Positions 45,023 through 64,000 of a stretch of 64,000 bases of DNA are shown one piece after another; position 1 is the stretch's first letter; every line of letters starts with the position of its first letter. The stretch is from positions 186,001 to 250,000 of the forward strand of contig JBHGNT010000031.1 in assembly GCA_043228905.1 (NCBI GenBank). The letters are read 5' to 3'. This stretch comes from Azolla caroliniana (Eukaryota; Plantae; Polypodiophyta). The translations under genes and the position numbers were made by a program. The notes below the pieces were generated by a model. The model saw only the letters and a program-made list of their open reading frames with translations. It had not been told where the DNA came from and made no database searches.

Positions 45023-45875
45023 AGAATAGGGTGGAGATAATCTAAAGGAGATGTGAGAGTAGGACTCTTACTTTCAGCCACATTGGCAGCAATATCCTCA
45101 TTTGTTGTAGTGTCATCAGCACCAGACATATCATGTGCCGTCCTTAATCCACAAGATTCTACAATAACATGGCAGCTATTTAGGATAGCTAATTAGCTAC
45201 TTTACTAAACTATGGTAGAAGCTAGGATAGCTAATTAGCTAGTACGATAGCTAATCAGGATAGCTAATTAGCTAGTACGATAGCTAATTAGGATAGCTAA
45301 TTAGCTAGTACGATAGCTAATTAGCTACTTTACTCAACTATGGTAGTAGCTAGGATAGCTAATTAGCGTAAAGTAGCTAATGGTAGTAGCTAGGATACTA
45401 CTTTACTCAACTATGGTAGTAGCTAGGATAGCTAATTAGCTACTTTACTCAACTATGGTAGTAGCTAGGATAGCTAATTAGCTACTTTACTAACTATGGT
45501 AGTAGCTAGGATAGCTAATTAGCTACTCTCAACTATGGTAGTAGCTAGGATAGCTAATTAGCTACTTTACTCAACTATGGTAGTAGCTAGGATAGCTAAT
45601 TAGCTACAATGATAGCTAATTAGCTACTTTCTCAACTATGTAGTAGCTAGGATAGCTTATTAGCTACTAGGATAGCTTATTAGCTACTTTACACAACTAT
45701 GGCAGTAGCTAATTAGCTAGTAGGATAGCTAATTAGCTTTTTTACACAACTATGGTACTAGCTAATTAGCTAGTACCATAGCTAATTAGCTGCCAATAGC
45801 TAATTAGCTACTAGGATAGCTTATTAGCTACTTTACACAACTATGGCAGTAGCTAATTAGCTACTAGGATAGCTC
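45023..45875. repeat. Displaced copy of the exon/intron junction and palindromic satellite found at about 60061-60900
   Basis: AGAATAGGGTGGAG..CACCAGAC..AAGATTCTACAATAACATGGCAGCTATTTAGG is followed by the TAGCTAATTAGCTA array, colinear with 60061 onward. Confidence 0.92.
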
Positions 45876-48800
45876 TGTCGAATACAAGTGTATAATGGAC
45901 GTATTCACACTATCCCTTTGTATAGCTCAAGTTTGGGCCATTTGTGTAATTAGCATAAATGGTAGTTGCCCTAAGTCGTCACTATATAAAGTGACCTAGT
46001 AACCTTTTTGTAAGGTTGGGTTGTATTATTGTTTCTATTGAATAGAAAGACTCATTGTGTGCCTCTCTCTCTCTCTCTCACTCTCTCTCTCTCTGTCTCT
46101 GTGCACGATCTTGCAGAATGTCATACGTAGGTACTCAGCACAAATCGAATGCTATTTGATCTTCCGCATTGACGACACGGCCTTTGTCCCCAACATCTGG
46201 TATCAGAGCCTGCACAGTATTCGGTCCTTCAACTCGCTGTCGGCCGTCGTCTCAGCTTGCACAACATTCGGTTTCCTGCGTCATTCGAAGAAGAGAGAAG
46301 AAGAAGAAAAAAAAAAACGAGGCTTGCATCTCATCGCGTTAGATCATCTTCGCTTGGAGTAAGCCAGCCGGTTGTACTCTGTTCCTTGTGATCGTAACTG
46401 CTCGAGGTGAAATCCCCTTGCGCAACATTGACACGATCGTGCTCCACTCGGTTAAACGGCATCCGAAGAGGTCATCAAACGCTGCTCGCCGCTCATTGTA
46501 ACCACTCGGTGCAGATCGGTCTCAAGACAACAACCCAAATTCGTGCTTCATCCGGCTGATCGACATTCGGGAGGATCAGTTGGATCCGTCTCTCTCGTCG
46601 CTGCAGTCACCCGAAGCAGAATCGGTCCAGACAATCGGTTTCAATAATCGGTATTTGGCATATATATTCGGAAGCGAACCGGGCTCACTCCGACTCGGCA
46701 ACATTCGGGAAGACCAGTCGGTTCTGTCCCTCAAGTTACCGGAGTCAATTCGAGCAAGTTCAACAATACATATATCCGAAGCCGAACCGACTCGGGTTCA
46801 AATCCGACTAGAACGATATCGGGTGAGCCAACCGGCTGCACTCCAACAAGGTTCATAGTCAACTCCGAACCGAGCTTCGTCAACCGAAACCAAATTTGAT
46901 GGCATCAACATCCGGCTCGTTAGAAATGAGTCTACGAAAGTTCGATGGATCGAACTTCAACTTCTGGAAAGAGCAAATGCAGGACTATCTCATAGTCAAG
47001 GGGCAAATCGATCCCATCGAAAATGAAGAACCTCCAGAAGGATACAAACCAATTGAGTGGCAGAAGCTGGACAGAATCGTCCGCGCCACGATTCGGATGC
47101 ACCTATCGGAATCGGTATACTTTACGGTGCAATCGTGTACGACAGCATTCGAACTGTGGAAAACACTGTCGGACACTTACGAAAAGAAGGTCGCCGCAAC
47201 GAAGATGTTTCTGATCCGGCGCCTCTACAACTTGCGGATGAAAGAATCCGATTCGGTTCAAGCACATCTCAATGAGTACGAAAGCATAAGCTCCCAAATC
47301 TCATCTCAGGGGACGGCAATCGAGGATGAACTTAGAGCAATGATACTCATGAGCAGCCTTCCCTCATCATGGGAAACTTTCGTCACAACCGTGTGCAACG
47401 CGTCAACCACGGCTGTTAAATACTCCGAAGTCACGAGCGCAATCCTGACCGAAGCAGCTCGGAGAAAGTCTTTCGCCAAAGACTCAACAGACGACGCTTA
47501 CGTAGTACAAGGTTCGACAGACCGATCGAACATACGAGGAAGAGATTCCTCACGGCAGCCGAACAATCAGCGAAGACGGAGCCAGTCACGGGATAATCGA
47601 ATCTGCAATTATTGCAAGAAATCCGGACACATCAAAGCCGACTGCCGCGCACTCAAGAACAAGAACGACAAGTCTCAGAAATCAGACAAGAAGAGTGGCC
47701 GGCATGAGGAGATCAATTACGTCAGCTTCTCAGCTGATGTGCTACCAAACGACCCGAATATACTATCAATCGAAAATCCAGTCGGATCAGAAGTTCTGCT
47801 CACGACTGAAGAATCGAGCACATGGCTCTTAGATTCGGGCGCGTCATTTCACGTGACTCCTCATCGATCCCAATTTCGGCAATATACGATCCGTCACTCC
47901 GACTCAGTTCGAGTCGGCAACTCGCAACACTGTGACATCATTGGAATCGGCACAGTAGAGCTCAACCTTGCAGGTGGCTCTACACTTGTACTTCACAATG
48001 TCCGACATGTACCCGAGCTCTCAAGGCCATTGATCTCAGTCGGACAACTAGATGAAGACGGCATTCGTGCCGGTTTTTCTTCGGGAGGGTGGACACTCCA
48101 CAGGGGGAACCTCCTGCTTGCTAGAGGACCCAAGATACACTCACTGTATCTGTTACATGTTACGCTCAGAGAGGGTAACCTGTTTTTGGTGGATATTCCT
48201 GTGTCATCACTATGGCACAGAAGATTAGGACACCTCAGCAAGGCCGGCATTACGCACCTATCTAGAGCCGGATACATCCCTAAACTCTCCTTCTTGGACC
48301 ATCAATTCTGCGAACATTGCCAGTATGGCAAACAAGCAGCCGCATCACACCCGACATCAGCACCAAGAGAAACGAGACCTCTCGATTTAGTTCACTCGGA
48401 CGTCTGTGGCCCAATGCCGCATCAGTCTCTCGGTGGTGCCTCTTACTTCGTCAGTTTTATTGACGATTCGACTCGAAAGGTGTGGGCTTATCCAATTCGC
48501 ACCAAAGATCGTGTCTTCTCGATCTTCTCCGATTGGCTTGCTATGGTAGAAAATCAAACTGACCGAAAACTGAAATGCTTTCGGACCGACAATGGGGGAG
48601 AGTTCAAATCAGAAGAATTCGTCAAATTCTGCCGACAACGCGGCATCCGACGTGAATTTACGGCACCACACAGTCCGGAGCAAAACGGGATTGCAGAACG
48701 CATGAATCGGACAATCCAAGAACGGATAGTTTCCATGCTCCAACACTCCGGACTGTCGGATGGCTTCTGGGCAGAGGCTCTACTCACGGCAGTACACATA

Positions 48801-51449
48801 ATCAATATGTCGCCAAGCAGACCTCTAGGACTTCAAATTCCTCAGGAACTATGGATCGGCAGTAAGCCGAATTACGACAAGCTGAGGATCTTCGGATGCG
48901 AGGCGTACGCCCTTATTCCGAAAGATGATCGCCGAAAACTTGCACCTCGGTCCAGGAAATGCATTTTCCTTGGATATGGATCAGACGGCGAAATGGGATA
49001 CCGACTCTGGGACCCCGAACGCAGACAAATCGTTCGAAGTTCGGACGTTGTGTTCAACGAGTCGGCTATGAATCCATCAGTCGAAAAACCGATCGAAGTC
49101 CGAAGGGTAACATTTTCCGATGTGCCGACCCTTCAAGAAGGCCCCGCTCTTAACACACGGTCAGCTTCACGGGTAGCTGAACCTTACACCACCGACTCGG
49201 ACAACTCTGACTCGGCACAGCAGAATAATTCGCTTTCGGACCATCCGACCTCGATACCCGCTGCGACCAGTCCAATCATACCTCGACGATCCGAGAGACT
49301 GTCGCAACCTCCGGAGAGGTATTCTCCTGGAATTTTCTTCACCGACGCCGGCGAACCGACGTCTTACGAAGAAGCATCGACATCTGTCGATTCAGCCACC
49401 TGGCATCTGGCGATGGAGTCGGAAATGCACTCCATCCGGGCAAACAAGACTTGGGATCTGGTCGAACTACCTAAGAATCGACGTGCTCTTCCTTGCAAGT
49501 GGGTTTATCGACTAAAAGAGACGTCTGATTCGACCACCCCAAAGTACAAGGCCAGATTAGTTGCGAAGGGCTTCCGACAAGAATATGGCGTCGACTTCGA
49601 CGAGATTTTTTCACCAGTGGTGAAAATGACAACCCTTCGTTTTCTACTCGGCGTAGTGGCAGCCGACAACTTGGAGCTGATTCAGCTAGATGTCAAAACA
49701 ACCTTCCTCCATGGTGATCTTAAAGAGGAAATTTATATGGAATAGCCAAAAGGCTTCGTGGCAACTGGCCAAGAACATCTAGTCTGCCGACTCAGGAAGA
49801 GTCTATACGGCCTCAAACAGGCACCGCGACAATGGTACAAGAAGTTCGACGACTTCATCCAATCGATCGGCTTCTCAAAAAGCGATGAGGACCATTGTCT
49901 TTTTACCAACACAACTCAAGATGGATCACCCATCTTCCTCATCATTTACGTGGACGACATGCTAATTTCTGGACGCCACGCGGGCGAACTTGCCGATCTC
50001 ATTCGGCAACTGCGGTTGAAGTTTGCCATGAAGGACCTCGGTCCGGCACGACACATACTTGGCATGAAGATTAGTCGGCATCGCGATAAACGACATCTTT
50101 TTTTGTCTCAGACCAACTATATCGGACGTGTCTTGGAACGCTTCAACATGCAATCAGCCAAATCTGCTTCAACCCCGCTCCCCATGAATCTTCGGCTCTC
50201 TCAGCGAGACTGCCCGACATCCGGTCCGGAGGGGGAAGATATGAAGTCGGTACCGTATGCACCGGCAGTCGGCTCCCTTATGTACCTGATGGTCGCGACA
50301 CGGCCTGATATCTCTCATGCCATAGGAGTCGTTAGCATATTTATGCACAATCCTGGCCGATCGCATTGGAACGCAGTCAAGCATGTGTTCAAATATCTGG
50401 CTGGCACAAAAGATCACGGCATTCTCTTCGGTCCGAACTCAACCTCAGGCGTAGTCGGTTACACCGACTCGGACTTCGCCGGCTGTATAGACAGTCGGAA
50501 ATCAACAACTGGATACTGCTTCAAGTTCGGCAATGGAGCAATTTCGTGGAAGTCGAAACTTCAGGAGTGCACAGCGACCTCAACGACCGAAGCAGAATAT
50601 GTAGCTGCGTCCGACGCTGCAAAAGAAGCTTTGTGGCTCGGCCGGCTGGCGCACACGTTCCGACAAGTCGACCATGACTCGGCCCCAGTTGTCTATAGCG
50701 ACAGTCAAGGTGCTGTTGCCTTGTCGAGAAATCCGGTTCACCACAACGCCTCCAAACATATCGACGTTCGATATCACTTCGTTCGGGACTGCGTCATTTC
50801 AGGGAAAATCGGTCTAGAGAAAATATCCACAACCGACAATGTCGCAGATGGAATGACCAAGTGTCTTTCGGCAGACCGCTTTCGGTCCCTTCGGCATCAG
50901 ATGGGCGTAACGAAAAACCAGTCCGGTTAGAGCCGGACACAGCGCAGGATGGTTTCAGACAACCGACATCAGTTCCCTAATGATCGGCTTCAACTCTTCC
51001 GAGCCGACCAGTCCGGTCTTCTGCCTTCGGACCCTGCCGACTCGAACAAAACTGATATGTCCAAGAACCTAGGTTTATACCTGTAATCTTAGATAACCCA
51101 TGTATACGCCCATTACGGGGGAGTGTCGAATACAAGTGTATAATGGACGTATTCACACTATCCCTTTGTATAGCTCAAGTTTGGGCCATTTGTGTAATTA
51201 GCATAAATGGTAGTTGCCCTAAGTCGTCACTATATAAAGTGACCTAGTAACCTTTTTGTAAGGTTGGGTTGTATTATTGCTTCTATTGAATAGAAAGACT
51301 CATTGTGTGCCTCTCTCTCTCTCTCACACTCTCTCTCTCTCTCTCTCTGTCTCTGTGCACGATCTTGCAGAATGTCATACGTAGGTACTCAGCACGAATC
51401 GAATGCTATTTGATCTTCCGCATTGACGACACGGCCTTTGTCCCCAACA
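45876..51449 (+). mobile_element. Young, full-length Ty1/copia element
   Basis: Nearly identical LTRs at 45876-46195 and 51124-51449. TSD AGCTC. PBS TGGTATCAGAGC at 46198. PPT at 51117-51123. Confidence 0.97.
46896..50930 (+). CDS. gag-pol: Copia gag-pol polyprotein with a single in-frame TAG (49743-49745) in RT
   Basis: ORFs of 949 aa and 390 aa lie in the same frame. Motifs CNYCKKSGHIKADC, WLLDSGAS, VHSDVCGP, IYME*PKGF, IYVDDML and DSDFAG. Confidence 0.93.
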
Positions 51450-52229: not shown

Positions 52230-53697
52230 GTGAAGTTATCCGGAAGCGGTCTAGTTAAACTCCTCACTCTCTCTTATCGGCTCCTTCGTTCAAGACCTCG
52301 ATGGTCCCGCCCCATTCCGACGCATACACGTGGATTTCCGCGACGTCTTTGGTGAACTCGACGTGAAAGGGACAACAACTGAGTCCAAAATTGTAATAAC
52401 CATGATCATTAATCCTAAAATAAAGACATAAGTGACACAATCATACTGAAAATACGCGTTACCACCCATCTGCCCCTGGGCCAGATTCGACAGCACAAAC
52501 GAGGAATCCCGATCTGTCCCATACCAACGAGGATCTCCACATAAGGACCATGGTAGATGACTAGTTCACATCAAAGAGAGCTTCGTCAGAACCACTCATG
52601 GGGCCCATCCTGACTAAGGAGAGTATCCCCTATCTATATGACCTTGGCCATGTAATGACATCTACTTGACCAATCATGTGTGGGGAACCCAATGACACAC
52701 ATTAGGTCAGTCCAATAAAGCCAACGACTCAGATATTACAGTATGATAGCCCCCAAATAAGCATGTCTAAACCAATGAACATTACAAACTCCCCCCCTTT
52801 GTTTAATTGCACTCTTGCAATGGGAAGTTACGAAAATGTTTGCGTAATGTGTCTCCAGTTTCCCACGTGTTGTCTTCTTCCAATCTATCCTTCCACTTAA
52901 CCTTATACCAATGAACAACCTTTGACCTTAGGTTTCTTGACCTATGGTCGGGGATTTTCTCAGGTTCATGTGGAGCAAAATGATCATTCCTCGAATGTTG
53001 ATAAATTAGACGGTGATACAACATTATCATCATAACCAATCGCCTCATTTAATCAACTCACGTGGAATACGGGATGAACCATAACATTGGAAGGCAAATC
53101 CAAACGATAAGCATTGGGACCTATACGTTTTAAAAATTTATATGGTCCATAATACCGTGGGGCTAATTTTGCACATGATCCTGTTCTCAATGTTTCTGAG
53201 TTCTTAGAAACCCGTAGAAAAACCTGTTGTCCTACGTATCATGATTCTGAGTTTTCTATCATGATTCGCATAAAAGACATTTCTATCTCGTGCCATCCTA
53301 AGGTTTTCTTCTGCTAATTTACGTGCTTCAAGCATATCAGAGAGAAAATCGTTTGTACTATCCAAAGTATGCGAATCAAACGAAACATCAATAGGAGGAT
53401 ATGACGTATAACCATACATCAACATGAACAGACTTTATTTTGTTGATGTATGCTTAGCGTTGTTGTAGGAAAATTCCACCATAGGAAGGAAAGTCTCCCA
53501 TAATGAGAGTTTTTGCGCTACATATCCTCTAATATTTGATTCACTCTCTCAGTTTGCCCATCTGACTGAGGATGATCAGACGAATTGAGACTCAAGGTTG
53601 TTTGCAGTTTCTGCATAACGTCTGACCAAAATGTACTTGTAAACTTGGAGTCTCAATCACACTTACAATCTCGATTGGTAGACCATATAAGCTATAA
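52230..53697 (-). pseudogene. Chromoviral gypsy 3' end: LTR remnant, PPT, chromodomain and integrase C-terminal half
   Basis: The LTR edge ..ATTACA lies at about 52786, followed by a C-run (PPT on -). Motifs YKVKWK....DNTWE, PRYYGPY, HPQSDGQTE and LYGLP. It breaks off abruptly at 53697. Confidence 0.8.
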
Positions 53698-54059
53698 GGG
53701 GGAAAGCATGCGAGTGGAAACAATTAGCTATGTCCTTGACATAGCTAATTAGCTATGCAAAAAGCTACCATTGATAAATAGTCATTTTAGTAAAAAGCCA
53801 TCATTAATAAATTAACTATGCAAAAAATTACCATTGAAAATACTAGAGTGTTTTAATTACATATGCAAATGAGTGCCATAAATGTGCAACATAAACGTGC
53901 AACATAATTTGATATGTGCACCATAAATGTGTACCATAAATTATATATCAAATTCCTAGGTCCATTATGCATGATCCTTTGCCACATCATGTAGGCCATC
54001 TCTAGTTGAGTATTGTGGGTTAGTTTCTACCACTGTCGCTAAACCCTATCGAGTCCACC

Positions 54060-54720
54060 TGCCACCACTCTACACTCAAGGGCCGCTACTGTGCGTTCCA
54101 AGCATCATCAAAGAGCTGCTCAATCTGACGGGGTTCTCTTCTCTGTGCCACTCTACACTCAGGGGCCGCTATTGTGCGTTCCAAGCATCATCAAAGAGTT
54201 GCTCAATCTGACGGGGTTCTCTTCTCTGTGCCACTCTACACTCAAGGGCCGCTACTGTGCGTTCCAAGCATCATCAAAGAGTTGTTCAATCTGACGGGGT
54301 TCTCTTATCTGTGCCACTCTACACTCAAGGGCCGCTACTGTGCGTTCCAATCATCATCAAAGAGTTGTTCAATCTAACGGGGTTCTCTTGTCTGTGCCAC
54401 TCTACACTCAGGGGCCGCTATTGTGCGTTCCAAGCATCATCAAAGATCTGTTCAATCTAACGGGGTTCTCTTGTTTGTGCCACTCTACACTCAGGGGCCG
54501 CTACTGTGCGTTCCAAACATCATCAGTAATTGTTCAATCTGACGAGGTTCTCTTCTTTGTGCCACTCTACTCTCATGTGCCTTCTCTGTGCGTTCCAAGC
54601 ATCATCGGTAACTGTTCAATCTGACGGGGTTCTCTCCTCCATTGCCATCATTCTACACTCAGTTGCCGCTATTGTCCAGTCCTGGATTGCCTCCACATTT
54701 CGATTTGACGGAGTTCACTC
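54060..54720. repeat. 83-bp tandem array, about 7 copies, decaying to the right
   Basis: Unit CCACTCTACACTCAAGGGCCGCTACTGTGCGTTCCAAGCATCATCAAAGAG..CAATCTGACGGGGTTCTC. The ORF starts at 54091, 54174, 54257 and 54340 show the 83-bp period. Confidence 0.95.
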
Positions 54721-54967
54721 ATCCAATGGCAACATTCTACACTCAATTGTTGCCATTGGTCGGTCCTGGATCACCTCCTCAACTGTTCGATCCAATGGAG
54801 TGAACTCCTCTACTGTTCGGTCTTGGATTGCAATAACTTTTCTATCTATTGATTATCTTGTGTATTGTTGTGTCTAATCTTGTGTATTGTGGAATATTGT
54901 TGTGTATTGTTGTTGCCGATGGCCATCTTAAATACTTGTTTTTTTTCTGGAAATTTAGGGTTTTAAC

Positions 54968-57900
54968 ATGTCCAGCCAAATGGAAGGGGAAGAAGGGTGT
55001 TTAGAATTACCCTTCAATGATCATAAGGATAGGGATGATGCTATCAGGACACAACAAGCCATACGAAACTATTGGGCAGAAAAAAAAAAGGAAACATCGT
55101 CAATTGTTGAAGGATACGAAAGCCACACTCAGTAAAGGTAAGGATAGTTTAGCTGAGAATGTAAGTAATGCGAAAGAAAGGTTGTAGACTATTTCAATGT
55201 TCAAACCAAGCACATCAGCAATGAAGAAAAGAAGGTAGTACTTTATGGAATATGTAATGATCCATCGATAAAGGACTTAGTTGATTGTGATGGTCTTAAT
55301 GCAAACATATCATCTATTTTAGTAAATAATCTTCGTAATAGTTTCGTATCCATGAGCAGGTCAGAAGATGATCTTGTCTTAAAAAGGTCTAGTCTAATGA
55401 TGTTACTTAATAGTGATGTTGACGATATAAACATCAGTGAGCTATCTAAGGTAATTAGTGTTAGTAGAAAAACAGTGTACAATACAATGAACCGTATAAT
55501 TTCCTCGGGTGAAGGAACTAGTCTACTAAAGCTAACTACAAGATGTAAGCCAATCACACCCATAACATTTGAAATCAAGGATGTAATCACAATGTTTTGG
55601 ACTAATGAGAGTAGGGTTTCACCCAATAAAAAGGATTGATGCAGGAAACGTGTTGGAAGAAATCAATAGGAGGAGCATCCCATTCATCTTCTTGATGTAC
55701 CTCAGGTATTTACATTTATCTCAACATTTGTTTTGACTCTACACGGAAAGTTAATTAGCTCAGTTAGCAGAAAAGCTAATTAGCTTATCAGTTACATTTA
55801 CCTCAGTTAGCTACTAGGATAGCTACTACATAGGTAACTGGCTACTCTCAATAGCTACTACCATGATAGCTAATTAGCTATTCTCAATAGCTAATTTAGG
55901 TACTACCAGATAATTAGCTGTCTTGGTAGCTAGTTAGCTATCATGGTAGCTAGTTAGCTATTTCGTTATTACCAGCTAATTAGCTACTAGGAAAGCTAAT
56001 TAGCTACCATGATAGCTAATTAGCTTACTAGGATAGCTAATTAGCCACTGTGATAGCTAATTAGCTACTAGACCAGCTAATTAGTTACTAGAAACCTAAT
56101 TAGCCACCATGATAGCTAATTAGCTACTAGGACAGCTAATTAGCCACCATGATAGCTAATTAGCTACTAGACCAGCTAATTAGCTACCATGATAGCTAAT
56201 TAGCTACTAGACCAGCTAATTAGCTACCATGATAGCTAATTAGTTACTAGGAAAGCTAATTAGCCACCATGATAGCTAATTAGCTACTGACCAGCTAATT
56301 ATCTACTAGACCAGCTAATTAGCTACTAGAATAGCTAATAAGCTACTAGAATAGCTAATTAGCTACTAGAATAGCTAATTAGCTACTAGGATAGTTAGCT
56401 AGTTACGTGAATAACTAATTCCCCTTTATTACGTAGGTCGATTTATTTATTAGGTTCAAACGAATGCATCCAACTATCAAAGTTCAACTAAGAACATTCG
56501 AGTCTCTTAAGCCACACTTTGTGAGACACTTAAAGGATCGATACACATGTTGCATTTACCATGTACCGATGGGTTTTCTGAAGGACTCTATTAATCTACT
56601 ACGTCACCATAGCGCATCCCTAACTAATACAGTTTGCACATGTGGGTGCCCAATCTGTCGATCAAGCCCGCAAGAGGAGTGTAAATCATCTGAGCACATT
56701 ATCTCTTCCATGAGTTATTTATTAGATTCAATATTGTGTCTGAGAGAAACTGACACTATCTTCCATATTCATAAATGTGTCATGGGTTTATGTCAAGATT
56801 GTGGCCCTACTAGATTTAGGTGGTGTCCAAATGAACTGAGTAGTGAAATATTGATCTTTGTGAGGTTCTTTGAGTCAGTGAACACCAATTTCGAAGGAAA
56901 GGTGTGTAAAAGAAAGGATCTAGTTCGGAAGATGCTTAAACCAAGGGATTTGGTGTCTCTGTTTGTAGTATCTCTAGGAAAGTTCATTAAACACAAGTTC
57001 ATTTATTCATGGCAGGCCCATCAGTTTAAGACTTACATATCTAATTTCCCAAATGATGTAGTAGTCTCAGTAGTAGATTTCGCAGAGAATTATACTTTCA
57101 AGCAGCAGAATGAAATTCAATCTATGCATTGGTGTTCAGTTCAGGTAACCATTTTTGTGCACATAAAATATTTTCGAGTTTCAGGTGATGTTAAAAAAGT
57201 AATTCATTTCTTTATTTCCGATGATAAGAAGCATGATACCTTGTTCGTCCAACACTGTTTTAAGTTACATTGGCAGTGGTTATTAGCTCAACGTGCATCA
57301 CATGTAGTTGAATTTTTAAGAACAAATATGTCAACGAGTGCAACAGGTGTTTATTCCTCGCAAGTCCGAGATATCAAACATGAATTTTGGGAAGTGAAGA
57401 TAGATGAAGTAAATAGAGAGAAGACCTGGGAGTGCCAAGGAATTCCCGAATTGCAATCTTTGCATGTTGTTCGCGGTTATTCCAGGTTGGATGGTCATTG
57501 TATTGCGGTTAGAGAATTGACTTGTTTTTGCTTCCATTGTGTGTAGAGAAATTGGAGATATTGTCTAAACAAAGCATAGATTCAGAACTGGGAGTATCAC
57601 ACTCTGAATGATAAGGAAGCAGTTGATGGAGAAACAAGGCAGAATGCTAACTTCACATATGAGGGACTTGGAGATACTTTGAGTGGTGTCCTAAACGTTG
57701 GGGATAACTTCGCTGTAAATGCTAAAGAAGGCAATTCAAAGGGTGTTGATTTCTATATATTGAAGTGCACGGTTAGTAAACAGTGTGCAAGGCAGAATAT
57801 TGTAGATGCATGGGGAAATTTTGTATCTGCCGGGACATTCTACATCGAAGGCATTTTTTATGCAAAACTAGATGACTACGAATATGTGTACAGGCTGTTA

Positions 57901-58047
57901 GAAGACAAACCAACGGCGTACATGTACTCTCATTTGGTCAGGTACATCAACGTCCCAATGTCAGAATACAATAGCTGCTCAGGTTTATACACTGTTGGTG
58001 CTAATGTGTATGAATGTATTTACAATAGTATGCCATGGAATTTGTAG
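54968..58047 (+). pseudogene. Spliced Sola2-like DDD transposase; intron at 55706-56436; carries stops and an internal deletion
   Basis: SPNKKD..LLDVPQ|VDLFIRFKRMHP..F..LKP is in frame across a GT..AG intron. A Cys-rich region is followed by VDFAENY..QNEIQSMHW...QVTIF, SDDKKHD, IP...SLH and CFC..C. Confidence 0.7.
55750..56410. repeat. Intronic array of the palindrome TAGCTAATTAGCTA
   Basis: Dozens of copies with short spacers (CTAGGA, CCATGA, CTAGAC), bounded by the donor at 55706 and the branch point/acceptor at 56413-56436. Confidence 0.95.
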
Positions 58048-58395
58048 CTACAAGTAGCACTTACCATGTTCTCTTGTAAAACAAACATGTATTTCGCGAA
58101 AACAGTTAAATAAATTCGTTTGAGAATCAATTTCTTGTATATAGTCTGCTTTCTGTGCTTCTTTCTCAATAAAATCATGTCTTTTTTGTTAAGTTATAAG
58201 TTATAAGTTATATCGAAATAGTCATCAGTAGCTAATTAGCTGTACAAATGCAGCTAATTAGTTGTCAATAGCTAAATAGTCATCAATAGCATGAAATCAA
58301 CAATCTTCAACATATTCCTCAAATTACACAGTAGATAAGTACAGTGGGAACAATTAATTAAATTCTCCATTGAATAATGTCATCTCTTTACATAT

Positions 58396-59411
58396 TTATA
58401 AATTACCATTGGAAATGTCTACAAATCTCCTACAAACAACTAAGCTCTTATTAGTCAGTGGAACGAGTCTACATATATTATCCGCATATCGAGCTCGGTA
58501 TGGAGTCCACAACCATGCACCTAGTTGGCAGCTCACTGTCTGCACCAGGTACTGTTCAGGCATTTCCTCGGGTAGAATGAAACAACATCTCCGAATATTG
58601 AAGTAGTGCCGGAAATGTTCTGTATCCAAAATCAATGTATTGTCGGCATTATATTCAAGTCAAGTAGCCCAAAAATCAGAAAGTCTCTTGAATCTTGCAA
58701 CTTCCATTTGCTCACAATTTTCTTGTGCCCATTGACCTTTAAAACGACTTTGCCATTTTGGGAAGAATCTTGCTAAACACTTCCACATATCTGATTTTGG
58801 TTTTTCACTCCAAATAAACAAATCAAAGTATTGCACAACCCACTCTAGAAACTGATTCGTGTCCCTCCTTGGCTGCATATATCTCACACTCATCAAGACT
58901 TTATCAAGCTCAAAGATCAAGGCTCTTCTTTCGACTTCTAGTGGTTTAGGTTTCCATTCCTGAAACTGAGCCGTTGTTACACCATTTTCTGGTAGGACAC
59001 GATCAATCTCAATCAGCTCAGGTTCGGCCGACACAACTGGCGTCCTTTTCCTCTTCAAACCCCTAGTCGACTATGTTGGGCCTGGTTTCACATTCTGGTG
59101 CTCTTGTTTTGTTGACTTAGTTATCAATACTTGGATTACCTCGGTGCATGTAGCTACTAATCTGTTCGATATCAGTCCACTAGTATCACGTGCTGCATCT
59201 ACCTGCAACACCAAGTCATCCGTGCAACATGCAACATCTACCTGCAACACCAAGTCATCCGTGCAACATGCTTGATCAACTTGTGTGACCAGATCACTTG
59301 TGTCAGTTGCTACATCTACTTTCAAGATGGGGCCCTTTAAACATGCCGCAACATCAACAATATCCACACTGCCATTGGCCTTACGAGCAATAGAATCAAA
59401 CCGTTTAGACT
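58396..59411 (-). pseudogene. FCP1/NIF-like HAD phosphatase-domain cargo gene with N-terminal 13-aa repeats and a basic patch
   Basis: ORFs 59071-59490, 58660-59058 and 58396-58635 are in one frame, separated by single stops. Motifs LIFELDKVL, R...QFL.W....FDLFIWS, FKRL..FW and NTLILD. Acceptor TTGCAG at 59412. Confidence 0.6.
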
Positions 59412-60209
59412 CTGCAACATCAGAAAACACCAACATATTCACACTCACAAAGTAACTAACATTCTCACAAAACAACATCCTGAACATCAAAGAGTTTCAG
59501 TCATAGAACAACACTCTTCAAATTATCTTGGAAAAACATCATAGAGTTCCATTACATAATGTGGATCAAGCAACAACCAATCTAAGGTTTTACTTGTCCA
59601 ACAGGATAGTAAAACTTCATAAAACCCTAGCAAAATCCCTAAGCTAACAATCATATCCAACTAAACAGTATTTCGCTCCACTACGTCTAGGCCCCTTGAC
59701 CGAGTAACTGGTCTTGTTCCCGATCGTGGCCCCTTCTTCAGCCTTTTTCTGGTCGGTTCCCCATTTAGCCTTGCTTCTTTCACCCAATGCGCAAGTGTGT
59801 CCTCCTCCAACAACCTTCCCATCGCCTCAGCAGCTAATTGCACATCAACCGTTTCTTGAACTAGCTTTTCAAGTACAGAGGGATTTGTTTGGACATTTTT
59901 AGTAGTTGGGCTCGATGGGGTGGAATCAAGGTCTTGAGATTCGAAGAAATGTTGCATCAGGTGTTCATAAACACTGTTGTTGTGAACCTCAATTTTACAT
60001 GTTGTTTCCACTATTTCATGGCATTTCACATCGTTGCCTAATTCAGTACACTGTTCCAAAAGAATAGGGTGGAGCTGATCTGAAGGAGATGTGATAGCAG
60101 GACTCTTACTTTCAGCCACGTTGGCAACAGTATCCTCATCTGTTGCAGCGTCATCAGCACCAGACACATCATGTGTCGTCCTTAATCCACAAGATTCTAC
60201 AATAACATG

Positions 60210-61500
60210 GCAGCTATTTAGGATCGCTAATTAGCTACTTTACTAAACTATGGTAGAAGCTCGGATAGCTAATTAGCTAGTACGATAGCTAATTAGCTAC
60301 TTTACTCAACTATGGTAGTAGCTAGGATAGCTAATTAGCTACTATGGTAGCTAATTAGCTACTATGGTAGCTAATTAGCTACTTTACTCAACTATGGTAG
60401 TAGCTAGGATAGCTAATTAGCGTAAAGTAGCTAATGGTAGTAGCTAGGATACTACTTTACTCAACTATGGTAGAAGCTAGGATAGCTAATTAGCTACTTT
60501 ACTCAAATATGGTAGTACCTAGGATAGCTAATTAGCTACTTTACTAACTATGGTAGTAGCTAGGATAGCTAATTAGCTACTCTCAACTATGGTAGTAGCT
60601 AGGATAGCTAATTAGCTACTTTACTCAACTATGGTAGTAGCTAGGATAGCTAATTAGCTACTTTACTCAACTATGGTAGTAGCTAGGATAGCTAATTAGC
60701 TACAATGATAGCTAATTAGCTACTTTCTCAACTATGTAGTAGCTAGGATAGCTTATTAGCTACTTTACACAACTATGGCAGTAGCTAATTAGCTAGTAGG
60801 ATAGCTAATTAGTTGCCAGTAGCTTAGCTAGTAGGATAGCTAATTAGCTTTTTTACACAACTATGGTACTAACTAATTAGCTAGTACCATAGCTAATTAG
60901 CTACTAGGATAGCTTATTAGCTACTTTACACAATTATGGCAGTAGCTAATTAGCTAGTAGGATAGCTAATTAGTTGCCAGTAGCTAATTACCTAGTGGGA
61001 TAGCTAATTAGCTAGTAGGATAGCTAATTAGTTGCCAGTAGCTAATTACCTAGTAGGATAGCTAATTATCTTTTTTACACAACTATGGTACTAGCTAATT
61101 AGCTACTAGGATAGCTAATTAGCTAGTAGCTCATTAGCTGCCAGTAGCTAATTAGCTAGTAGGATAGCTAATTAGCTACTTTACACAACTATGGTGATAG
61201 CTAATTAGCTACTCATAGCTAATTAGCTAATAGCTAACTAGTTGGCATTAGCTAATTAGCTGCCAGTAGGATACTTAATTAGCTAGTAGCAAACTAGCTG
61301 CCACTTAGCTAATTAACTACTGTAGTAAACTATGGCAATAGCTAATTAACTAATAGGATAGCTATTAGCTGCTTTAATCAACTATGGTAGTAGCTAATTA
61401 GCTACAACAATAGCAGCAATTACGGCTTAGCTAATTAGAAAAGACTAAGCTTATTAGCAGCAATTACGGCTTAGCTAATTAGAAAAGACTAAGCTTATTA
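60210..61500. repeat. Intronic array of the palindrome TAGCTAATTAGCTA (intron 60197-61517)
   Basis: Higher-order unit of roughly 45 bp (CTACTTTACTCAACTATGGTAGTAGCTAGGATAGCTAATTAG), bounded by minus-strand CAG|GTATAC and TTGTAG|. Confidence 0.95.
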
Positions 61501-62949
61501 GCTACAGTATGGTATACCTGTTAGTTTTCTCCACTCATTTGGTAGAGCTGTACTGCAATCTCCCAAACAGAATGCAACAATTCGACAGGCATGTTGAAAA
61601 CAAAGCAGATGGTATGTGTGGTTGCATGGTTGTAGGTGAACCAACAAAGACGCAATTTTGTCCTCCACACCTAACCCGCAAGCGATGCAACGTGCTTGAA
61701 CTGTCAATAAATCATTTTCTGGTTCTGCTTCATTTGGTAAGGGAGCAAGAATGTTCAGGTCCAAATCCTATCTAGTCCTTACCATTCCCTCCACAAAATG
61801 TAGCTGCTTCTTAAGGCAGCTAACTACCTGTTCTTGATGAATGTATTGTTCCTTCAACGCAACAGAGAAATTTACAGATTAATTATTCCTATTGTTGAAT
61901 GATACACCAACTTTGCTCAAGAATCGTTAACTTAATTGAAGCTTATCCAAATTGTAATCTGCAACAGTATTTACACCTAGAAGGTCCAGGTTCATTGAAA
62001 GAACCTGGATCTCTATTTGCAGTTGTATTTTACGTTGGGGATCCAGTGGCCCCTCTAATTCAAGCTCCTGTTGCGCAACCTATTCCAGATAATGCTTGAT
62101 TAGCACATTTTACCCTTAAAGTTATTTATAACACAATCACATACCAGCAAAACAATAGTTACCTGAATCTTATTTCTAATCGTTGTAACAACGGAAGTAA
62201 CTTTGCTCTCCATTGCAAAAGCCATTGTGGCTTTCTCTAAATCAGTCTTAAAAAATGCCAATGTCTCACAGGCTTCATGGACATTTTTTAGCATATAGCC
62301 AACCAATGTCTCACCTGTATCATCGACATTGGCTTTCCTTGGGTGTCGGTGTGGTGTATGCCCCCGGTCTTGCTGGGAGTCAGCAGTTGCATCAACAGCT
62401 GCCATGCTCCAAAATCTGTCTATTTTTTTTGCCAAGGTCCCCATCTTTCGGCATCTTTTTACCGATGCCTCACCATAGACTGCCCAAGCTACACTATACA
62501 TTTCAGGGTCTCTGGATTCCTTCGTTGTTTTGCAGTACTCATATGCAAATGCTCTAGCAAATGAAACTGACAACTCATTGTTGACTGGGATGTCCTGATG
62601 AACTTTCTGGTGCAGCGTCATGCAGTCATCGTACAAGTCGGCTCGTACATGCTTCAACTTGACCTTGCCTTTGACTCTAGGCACTATATATACTATCATC
62701 CAGTCTACATCACTGATCAATTTATCACTTAGGACAGCAGGGTCAACACCCTCGAGTGACAGACCATAGGTGTTGTGGAAGTCCTCCTTTGTCTCGCAAA
62801 ATTTTGCGAAGTTTAGCACTCTCGGATACAAAGGAACGAGCCATCTGAAATATCATTTCAGAAATAAGAAATACTGCAAAATCCGAATATGTCAGAATCA
62901 AAAACCCCAATCAACAACAACAAAAATGGTGCAAAATCTTTAACTTAGC

Positions 62950-63770
62950 AAATCAGAAACCCTAATCATAATTTGTATTCAGAAATTTGAAATCAGAAAC
63001 CCTAATCAAAATCTGTAATCAGAAGTTTGAAATTAGAAACCCTAATCAAAATCCGTAATTAGAAGTTTGTAACCAAAAACCCTATTCAGAAATTCTAATA
63101 AAAAATTTATAATCAAAAACCCTAATAAAAAATTTCAATCAGAAACCCTAATCAGAAATTTCAATCACAAACCCTAATCAGAAATCCTAAACAGAAATTT
63201 ATAAACAAAAACCCTATTCAGAAATTCTAATTAGAAATTCTAATCTGTAATCAAAATTTGTAACCAGAAACCCTATTCAGAAATTCTAATAAGAAATTTA
63301 TAATAAAAAACCCTAATCAGAAATTTCAATCACAAACCCTAATCAGAAATCCTAAACAGAAATTTATAAACAAAAACCCTATTAAGAAATTCTAATCAGA
63401 AATTCTAATCTATAATCAAAATTTGTAACCAGAAACCCTATTTAGAAATTCTAATCAGAAATTTATAATAAAAAACCCTAATCAGAAATTTCAATCAGAA
63501 ACCCTAATCAGAAATTTCAATCACAAACCCTAATAAAAAATCCTAAACAGAAATTTATAAACAAAAACCCTATTCAGAAATTCTAATCTGTAATCAAAAT
63601 TTGTAACCAGAAACCCTATTCAAAAATTCTAATTAGAAATTTATAATCAAAAACCCTAATCAAAAATTTTAATCAGAAACCCTAATCAGAAATTTCAATC
63701 ACAAACCCTAATCAGAAATTTATAAACAAAAACCCTAATCAGAAATTTCAATCAGAAACCCCAATCATCA
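62950..63770. repeat. Intronic telo-box (AAACCCTA)-rich tandem array (intron 62845-63812)
   Basis: Repeated AAACCCTAATCAGAAATTT(C/A)..AATC units with higher-order structure, bounded by minus-strand CAG|GTGTGT and TTTCAG|. Confidence 0.9.
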
Positions 63771-64000
63771 CTAAAGATAGGATTAAACACAAAAAAAGTA
63801 ATATAAACACACCTGCTGCTACTCCCCGATCTGGGAGACATCCTTGTATGGGACTCTAAGGACTTCACCTTATTCGATTTTGGGGAAATATGAATCGGCA
63901 CCAAAGTTCAGACAGTAGTCAAAAAGAAAAAACAAATGTTTGGGGTTTCTGTAACTGAAACATACCTGGATGATGATCGAGTAGGTTCTGTGTTGTAGCT

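Follow-up and report, generated by a model that had tools for sequence, protein, structure and literature searches.

We analyzed a 64,000-nucleotide stretch of the genome of the fern Azolla caroliniana (GenBank assembly GCA_043228905.1, contig JBHGNT010000031.1, positions 186,001 to 250,000; hereafter "the window", with coordinates counted from its first base), in which a first-pass annotation had pointed to two introns, in oppositely oriented genes, built from copies of one 14-bp palindrome. Both introns turn out to be parts of one dead copy of a two-gene DNA transposon of the Sola2 type, in which the transposase gene (+ strand) and an accessory gene (- strand) converge. Judged from sequence comparison, what is newly seen here is a family-by-family change of the repeated motif, a link between that motif and the terminus of the element, and evidence against a reading in which the repeats act as RNA. 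It is likely that the repeats serve as sites where an element protein lands, rather than as RNA hairpins.

Exon 1 of the transposase gene (54968..55705, +), located by tblastn with the intact exon 1 of the sister copy L001, encodes a predicted helix-turn-helix (HTH); its frame is disrupted near 55090-55170, two stops lie near its end, and its Pfam HTH matches all fall under the curated cut-offs. Exon 2 (56437..58047, +) is of the Sola2 type, has stops at 57544 and 57577, and lacks catalytic Asp motifs two and three, which fell within a 76-codon in-frame deletion at 57294/57295. The element is assigned to Sola2 by the three-Asp catalytic motifs in the sequence of P0001, the intact transposase of L001, which is 92% identical to that of the window: compared by eye with the published Sola2 alignment, P0001 has DF(A/S)ENY..Q.EIQS.HW, SDD..HD, SDG.ASQ.K and WNFF..(S/G)HGK..DG.G. 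A Pfam search of P0001 returned no MULE match, and by this mark the protein does not group with the MuDR/MULE transposases. For the structure model of the transposase (predicted local distance difference test, pLDDT, 78.5), the best Foldseek rows included integrases, RNase H, and P-element and IstA transposases, with none at E <= 0.001.

Between these exons lies a phase-0 intron of 731 nt (55706..56436, +; hereafter the first intron), which has GT..AG ends, joins PQ to VD in frame, and carries an array of a palindromic core with a 20-bp period, densest at 55974-56394. Its placement by the first-pass annotation is fixed by homology. We compared the junction across 80 related loci from one scan, 28 of which were uninformative; among the 52 with both flanking exons, 27 are gapless at exactly this site and 25 have an intron there, of 86 to 3487 nt. 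RNA contigs on the stretch (5 from run X1 and 0 from run X2, the kind of run being guessed) span no splice junction and have no bearing on splicing. The first introns of the two sister copies measure 731 versus 1000 nt, with 6 differences over the initial 141 nt.

The accessory gene is described here in its own reading direction on the - strand. An exon at 62163..62844 contains a conserved helical domain of ~150 residues (about 62370-62846; hereafter the N-domain), which we infer to be the candidate DNA-binding part of the protein. The next exon (61518..62079, -) encodes a coiled coil and a RING-like finger, aligns with residues 290-454 of the transcript-derived fern protein P0168, gives weak Pfam RING matches, and contains three in-frame stops. 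It is followed by a phase-1 intron of 1321 nt (60197..61517, -; hereafter the RING intron), which has GT..AG ends, joins the RING exon in frame to an open exon of 177 codons, and is composed of 20-, 33- and 42-bp units with the same palindromic core as the first intron. The grounds for this intron are its GT-AG ends, the frame, a sister fragment and the order of domains; no homologue was found to align across its junction, and no read spans it. Downstream come an acidic, low-complexity exon (59664..60196, -, 3' boundary not fixed) and the last exon or exons (58400..59480, -, boundaries approximate), where a low-complexity stretch precedes a NIF/FCP1-like domain and in-frame stops occur. The DxDxT motif is the catalytic signature of domains of the NIF/FCP1 type; the domain here, with a NIF Pfam match of 23.7 bits over a cut-off of 21.8, is without it. 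Both introns were thus annotated with the right phase, splice signals and joined frames. The further statement that reading frames are exactly preserved holds at the two junctions and not beyond them, as the transposase and accessory genes both carry stops or breaks elsewhere.

At least two further introns of the accessory gene are free of the palindrome, one of them 83 nt long and the other (62845..63812, -) holding another kind of array, of 13-bp units, in which 22 telobox-like AAACCCTA words all lie on the same strand; the latter intron folds at z -11. The telobox-like array could recruit host telobox-binding proteins. An opposite-strand accessory gene is also present at L007, L009, L011, L014 and L018, and there are named homologues from two fern genera, a protein derived from a transcript in Pteridium and gene models in Adiantum; P0262, a named fern gene model, has the N-domain, RING and NIF-like parts in a single chain. 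The N-domain is modelled at pLDDT 94.8, and a wider profile of it has 255 library matches. It gave no Pfam match at E <= 0.01 among 83 aligned members, DUF1985/PMD included, no solved fold at E <= 0.001 in Foldseek (the best being VIA, Z 2.5), no usable match in the ESM Atlas, and no profile likeness to transposase exon 1; a sequence search of solved structures matched only the coiled coil of the accessory protein. These failed fold searches do not prove a new fold.

In the window the exact 14-mer palindrome occurs 47 times, including 8 copies in the first intron and 23 in the RING intron. With up to one mismatch there are 74 matches versus 0 in each of 100 shuffles, far more than chance would give, and all 74 lie inside the element or a sister fragment. 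The introns had been described as nearly entirely palindrome, which overstates the case: exact copies cover 15% of the first intron and 24% of the RING intron, and copies with up to 3 mismatches cover 56% and 49%. The arrays do not reach the splice signals either: in the first intron, 161 nt separate the donor from the first exact copy, and 51 nt lie between the end of the last one and the acceptor. Selection for spliceability, which had been proposed to explain where the arrays stop, is impossible on the dead window copy and calls for no special mechanism, because an array in a working gene would persist only in non-coding DNA. The palindromic core is common to both introns, with spacers that mostly differ. 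We also considered helical phasing: the spacings of 20, 33 and 42 are near whole turns, but there are 15, 18 and 25 too, and the units are few and related, so we made no use of it. No tandem pattern of the palindrome was matched in viral contigs (0 matches).

The palindrome also occurs at 53742 in the left terminus, at 58229 among three degenerate motif copies between the 3' ends of the two genes (58225..58290, found in a motif search of the window), and in a third array at 45160-45875. This array is a piece of the RING intron of a sister copy, which runs through the acceptor into the exon that follows; the whole fragment (45023..45875, -) comprises part of the post-RING exon and 715 nt of array intron. 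Where the third array ends, a near-intact copia element (45876-51449) has inserted with a 5-bp target duplication, and the parts of its long terminal repeats are ~97-99% identical.

The left terminus (53698..53797, +) starts with GGGGGAAAGCATG and can be aligned to those of L002, L003 and L009. We placed the left end at 53698, where the four termini align and the flanks of L002, L003 and L009 are unrelated; it is the one end defined here, the right end, and with it the target duplication, lying beyond base 64000, outside the window. The terminus has a short inverted core (53730-53742) that different families keep, and the palindrome is present in it as a single exact copy (53742-53755). On its outer side, the left end adjoins a fragment resembling the tail of a Ty3/gypsy integrase (53053-53434, -), and the left end of L003 breaks into a frame resembling a long interspersed nuclear element.

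The comparison across families carries most of our argument. Array scoring covered 15 long first introns; partial introns of <500 nt (L006, L010, L012, L017) were left out, and introns of 86-258 nt were outside the motif test. A clear array is present in eight of the 15 (the window, L001, L002, L003, L005, L007, L009 and L011); another 2 are marginal cases, and the remaining 5 are without one. The repeated motif differs between families: it is AGCTAATTAGCT in the window and L001, ACCATTAA(TGG) in L002, AGTGGTAATTAGTA in L003, TTGGTAC in L005, TAGCATAC in L007, AGGTGAAA in L009, and TTTCCTGA in L011. It is palindromic in the window/L001, L002, L007 and L009, and non-palindromic, in one strand orientation, in L003 and L011. 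L005 and L006, which are 71% identical, have a common motif, and L001, L002 and L003, at 60-61%, have different ones; L007 and L008 have a common motif as well (L008 was left out of the identity comparison owing to a frameshift). In the family of L025, L026 and L065, the first intron is only 86-92 nt long, and an array of TTAGTACTAA words lies instead in another transposase intron, the second, which follows residue 306 (L025:3205-4130). Arrays of the window, L001, L002, L003, L005, L007, L009 and L025 are CG-poor (1-8% of cytosines versus 8-12% in four exon-2 sequences), which may be the ordinary decay of methylated non-coding DNA. Two other repeats were seen among the relatives: an array of GGAAT-type pentamer words in the intron after the RING exon of a distant family (L014:5550-6460), and a long ATGACT/ATGATT microsatellite upstream of the transposase of L024 (1900-2600).

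The motif of a family is also found outside the intron. Taking the top words from the intron alone and counting them downstream of the same transposase, we found that their counts top every one of 100 shuffles at five of the seven loci that have both an array and downstream DNA (329 vs 10.9 in the window, 68 vs 2.5 in L002, 12 vs 3.8 in L003, 25 vs 1.5 in L005, and 11 vs 1.8 in L007); in exon 2 the intron words are at background level. At the other side of the gene, the best match of each intron is its own terminus (the first 100 bp of the element) in all four elements with clear left ends, with own-terminus 8-mers at 211, 57, 64 and 38 per kb versus 4-7 for shuffled ends. No other 100-bp tile, whether upstream, coding or in what flanking DNA was available, scores as high as these 100 bp in any of the 4 elements. 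Of the further matches to the terminus pattern, L068 and L014 alone were taken as candidate ends; the former, a fifth candidate left end, is weakly positive (19 vs 5.7, p 0.012). The terminus holds one or two copies of the motif, and the dense clusters are intronic. The terminal inverted core and the predicted recognition helix of the transposase are nearly constant in L001, L002 and L003; the array motif changes.

One way to account for the arrays is as intronic enhancers, that is, amplified sites for host transcription factors that would draw host rather than element proteins. Several of the motifs contain TAATTA, TTAAT or GTAC, and words of these types are the cores of homeodomain and SBP-box sites. 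The telobox-like array in the accessory gene likewise matches a host-bound word (the consensus appears in the part of 10.1101/2024.09.27.615353 available). A motif that changes at 60% family identity and follows its own terminus is not what one would expect of host factors, however, and we regard this explanation as improbable.

The first-pass annotation had also suggested that the intron RNAs pair with themselves and with each other. In such a circuit, the folded or paired introns would give rise to small RNAs and regulate the element, and in the window copy this is physically possible: the first intron has a folding z of -16 and a helix of 39 bp if G-U pairs are counted, the two intron RNAs can form a perfect 24-bp duplex, and there are 71 starts of 24-nt inter-intron duplexes at <=1 mismatch. 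Such folding and pairing follow from the palindromic units. The arrays of L001, L007 and L009 also fold strongly (z -18, -9 and -8.8), so that some families could yield small RNAs, and in L002 a single DNA strand carries the motif across both converging genes. Against this, z is only -3.6 in L002, and in L003 (a dense array, z -1.4) and L011 (z +1.2) the fold is no better than in shuffles. The intron pairs of L002 and L003 reach at most 12-14 Watson-Crick bp, with no 24-nt Watson-Crick window at <=2 mismatches within or between introns; the longest helix in the intact sister L001 is 18 bp, and a long near-perfect duplex is absent from L002, L003, L011 and L025. An Rfam search gave 0 matches. 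The limit of 12-14 bp in L002 and L003 means that the circuit is not conserved, and the motif is also present in the terminus, where a role in intron RNA does not apply. We consider such a circuit very improbable.

Our preferred interpretation, to which we give a probability of about 0.52 on comparative sequence evidence, is that the arrays are dense double-stranded DNA binding platforms for a predicted element-encoded protein, by which each family would recognize its own copies and keep them active. Protein binding was the other suggestion of the first-pass annotation, and it gains comparative support from a family motif common to the terminus, the introns and the 3' intergenic region. Under this interpretation, intact copies would produce a sequence-specific DNA-binding protein whose putative site stands once or twice in the terminus and has been multiplied in the introns and between the genes, where repeats would cost the coding sequence nothing. 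The arrays would have grown by slippage or unequal exchange. Motif density would confer specificity, as has been shown for VANC21 (PMC5735166) and TnpA (10.64898/2026.08.24.746577), and the bound protein might keep cognate copies transcribed through activation or anti-silencing, as VANC and TnpA do. The palindrome would then reflect a symmetric site in the family of the window and not an RNA function.

The weakest step is the identity of the binder. The constant terminal core is presumably the site of the transposase, which makes the changing motif more likely that of the accessory protein, and we therefore favor the latter as the predicted binder. The transposase itself remains a candidate by analogy, since a transposase can be the binder in Spm/TnpA and in AtMu1 self-activation (10.64898/2026.08.24.746577, in the text available).

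Several observations weigh against a binding platform. As 27 relatives are intron-free at the junction and 5 long introns are without a clear array, arrays are not required family-wide. The downstream enrichment failed in L009 (0 vs 1.3) and L011 (18 vs 6.1, not over the shuffle maximum) and was found in 0 of 4 testable loci without clear arrays. There were also off-diagonal passes, with the words of L003 enriched in the window (TAATTA is common to both) and passes by the AT-rich words of L043. Cross-matches between termini and introns, at 60 per kb for the L002 terminus against the window intron and 40 for the window terminus against the L003 intron, make the family specificity only partial, and the candidate right end of L014 shows no match to its own intron (p 0.17). 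The core is less variable than the spacer in the 20-bp units (p about 0.04-0.08), which is borderline evidence for selection on a core chosen after the fact, and a variant that breaks the palindrome has been amplified five times in L001. L001 is itself a short-read contig, in which the array may collapse several copies. From an accessory N-domain without a Pfam match, neither DNA binding nor kinship to VANC follows. Finally, a terminal piece copied into the introns would yield equal co-variation without any function.

This last point is the core of a functionless alternative, in which a piece of the element's end is copied into non-coding DNA by repair or template switching, amplified by slippage, and kept where it is harmless. 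Array length and unit order do differ between sister copies, as such turnover would have it, and unrelated arrays are present inside the same element, namely the telobox-like one and an 83-bp tandem repeat (54065..54778), which stands ahead of the transposase on the side of the left end and has ~7-9 palindrome-free copies. The many arrayless relatives and the borderline conservation of the core fit as well. Turnover alone, however, would need at least four separate family events, each with its word drawn from the terminal 100 bp and set down in more than one region, and it leaves the core kept though the spacers differ between the two introns. We hold it to be unlikely, if less so than a host-enhancer origin.

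Awareness of such arrays matters beyond this locus. The published cases of sequence-specific transposon anti-silencing that we found are all in flowering plants; if binding platforms of this kind exist in Sola2, a convergent system in another superfamily and in a much older plant lineage would turn anti-silencing into a general strategy, and would help to account for the continued activity of DNA transposons in ferns with large genomes. From the window/L001, L002, L003, L005, L007 and L009, the matched sets of motif and protein would then supply a new family of DNA-binding domains programmable by evolution. A bolder version holds that Sola2 elements of seed-free plants have a third self-recognition system, independent of VANDAL/VANC and Spm/TnpA, in which a RING/dead-phosphatase-like accessory protein with a new helical DNA-binding fold binds a family barcode, placed in the terminus and multiplied in the introns, and protein and barcode evolve together so as to evade silencing by the host; this we offer tentatively, as a possibility that we rather doubt.

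In the comparison with known systems, we rely on the available portions of each cited paper. A search of the literature open to us (most subscription papers and the Repbase entries lie outside it) returned no paper that deals with the palindrome or with arrays of motifs in Sola2 elements of plants. Sola2 elements with a second gene, Fanzor1, are known (PMC3627910); unlike the elements described there, the one here has a conserved phase-0 intron, a convergent RING/NIF gene and motif arrays. Sola1-1_Ec32 of Ectocarpus resembles it in being a Sola element with an opposite-strand accessory gene (PMC12477816), but is a Sola1 element with a ParB-methyltransferase, a domain not seen here, and the string "palindrom" does not appear in the main text of that paper as available. 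With Spm/TnpA our elements share family-specific motifs at the termini; there, dense terminal motif clusters are needed for binding (10.64898/2026.08.24.746577), whereas here the terminus has just one or two copies and the arrays stand in introns, and Pfam and fold searches found no TnpA likeness in the accessory protein.

In layout, the element parallels VANDAL/VANC. The differences are that the transposase of the window is of the Sola2 type and not MuDR, that the accessory protein has an unassigned helical domain, a RING and a NIF-like part with no DUF1985/PMD Pfam match, and that the motif of the window's family is also in the terminus; VANCs have moreover been described as dicot-specific (PMC13547354). 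Both systems have an additional element gene beside the transposase, and both have a family-specific short motif in fast-changing tandem repeats that occupy non-coding stretches, among them introns of the transposase gene and of the additional gene (PMC5735166, PMC10398659). For VANC21, the family-specific repeated motif has been tied to binding by experiment (PMC5735166), and VANDAL tandem repeats have been discussed as targets of silencing (PMC10398659). The rapid gain and loss of repeat units is a further likeness, seen here in first introns of 731 versus 1000 nt between kept flanks and in the third array compared with the RING intron.

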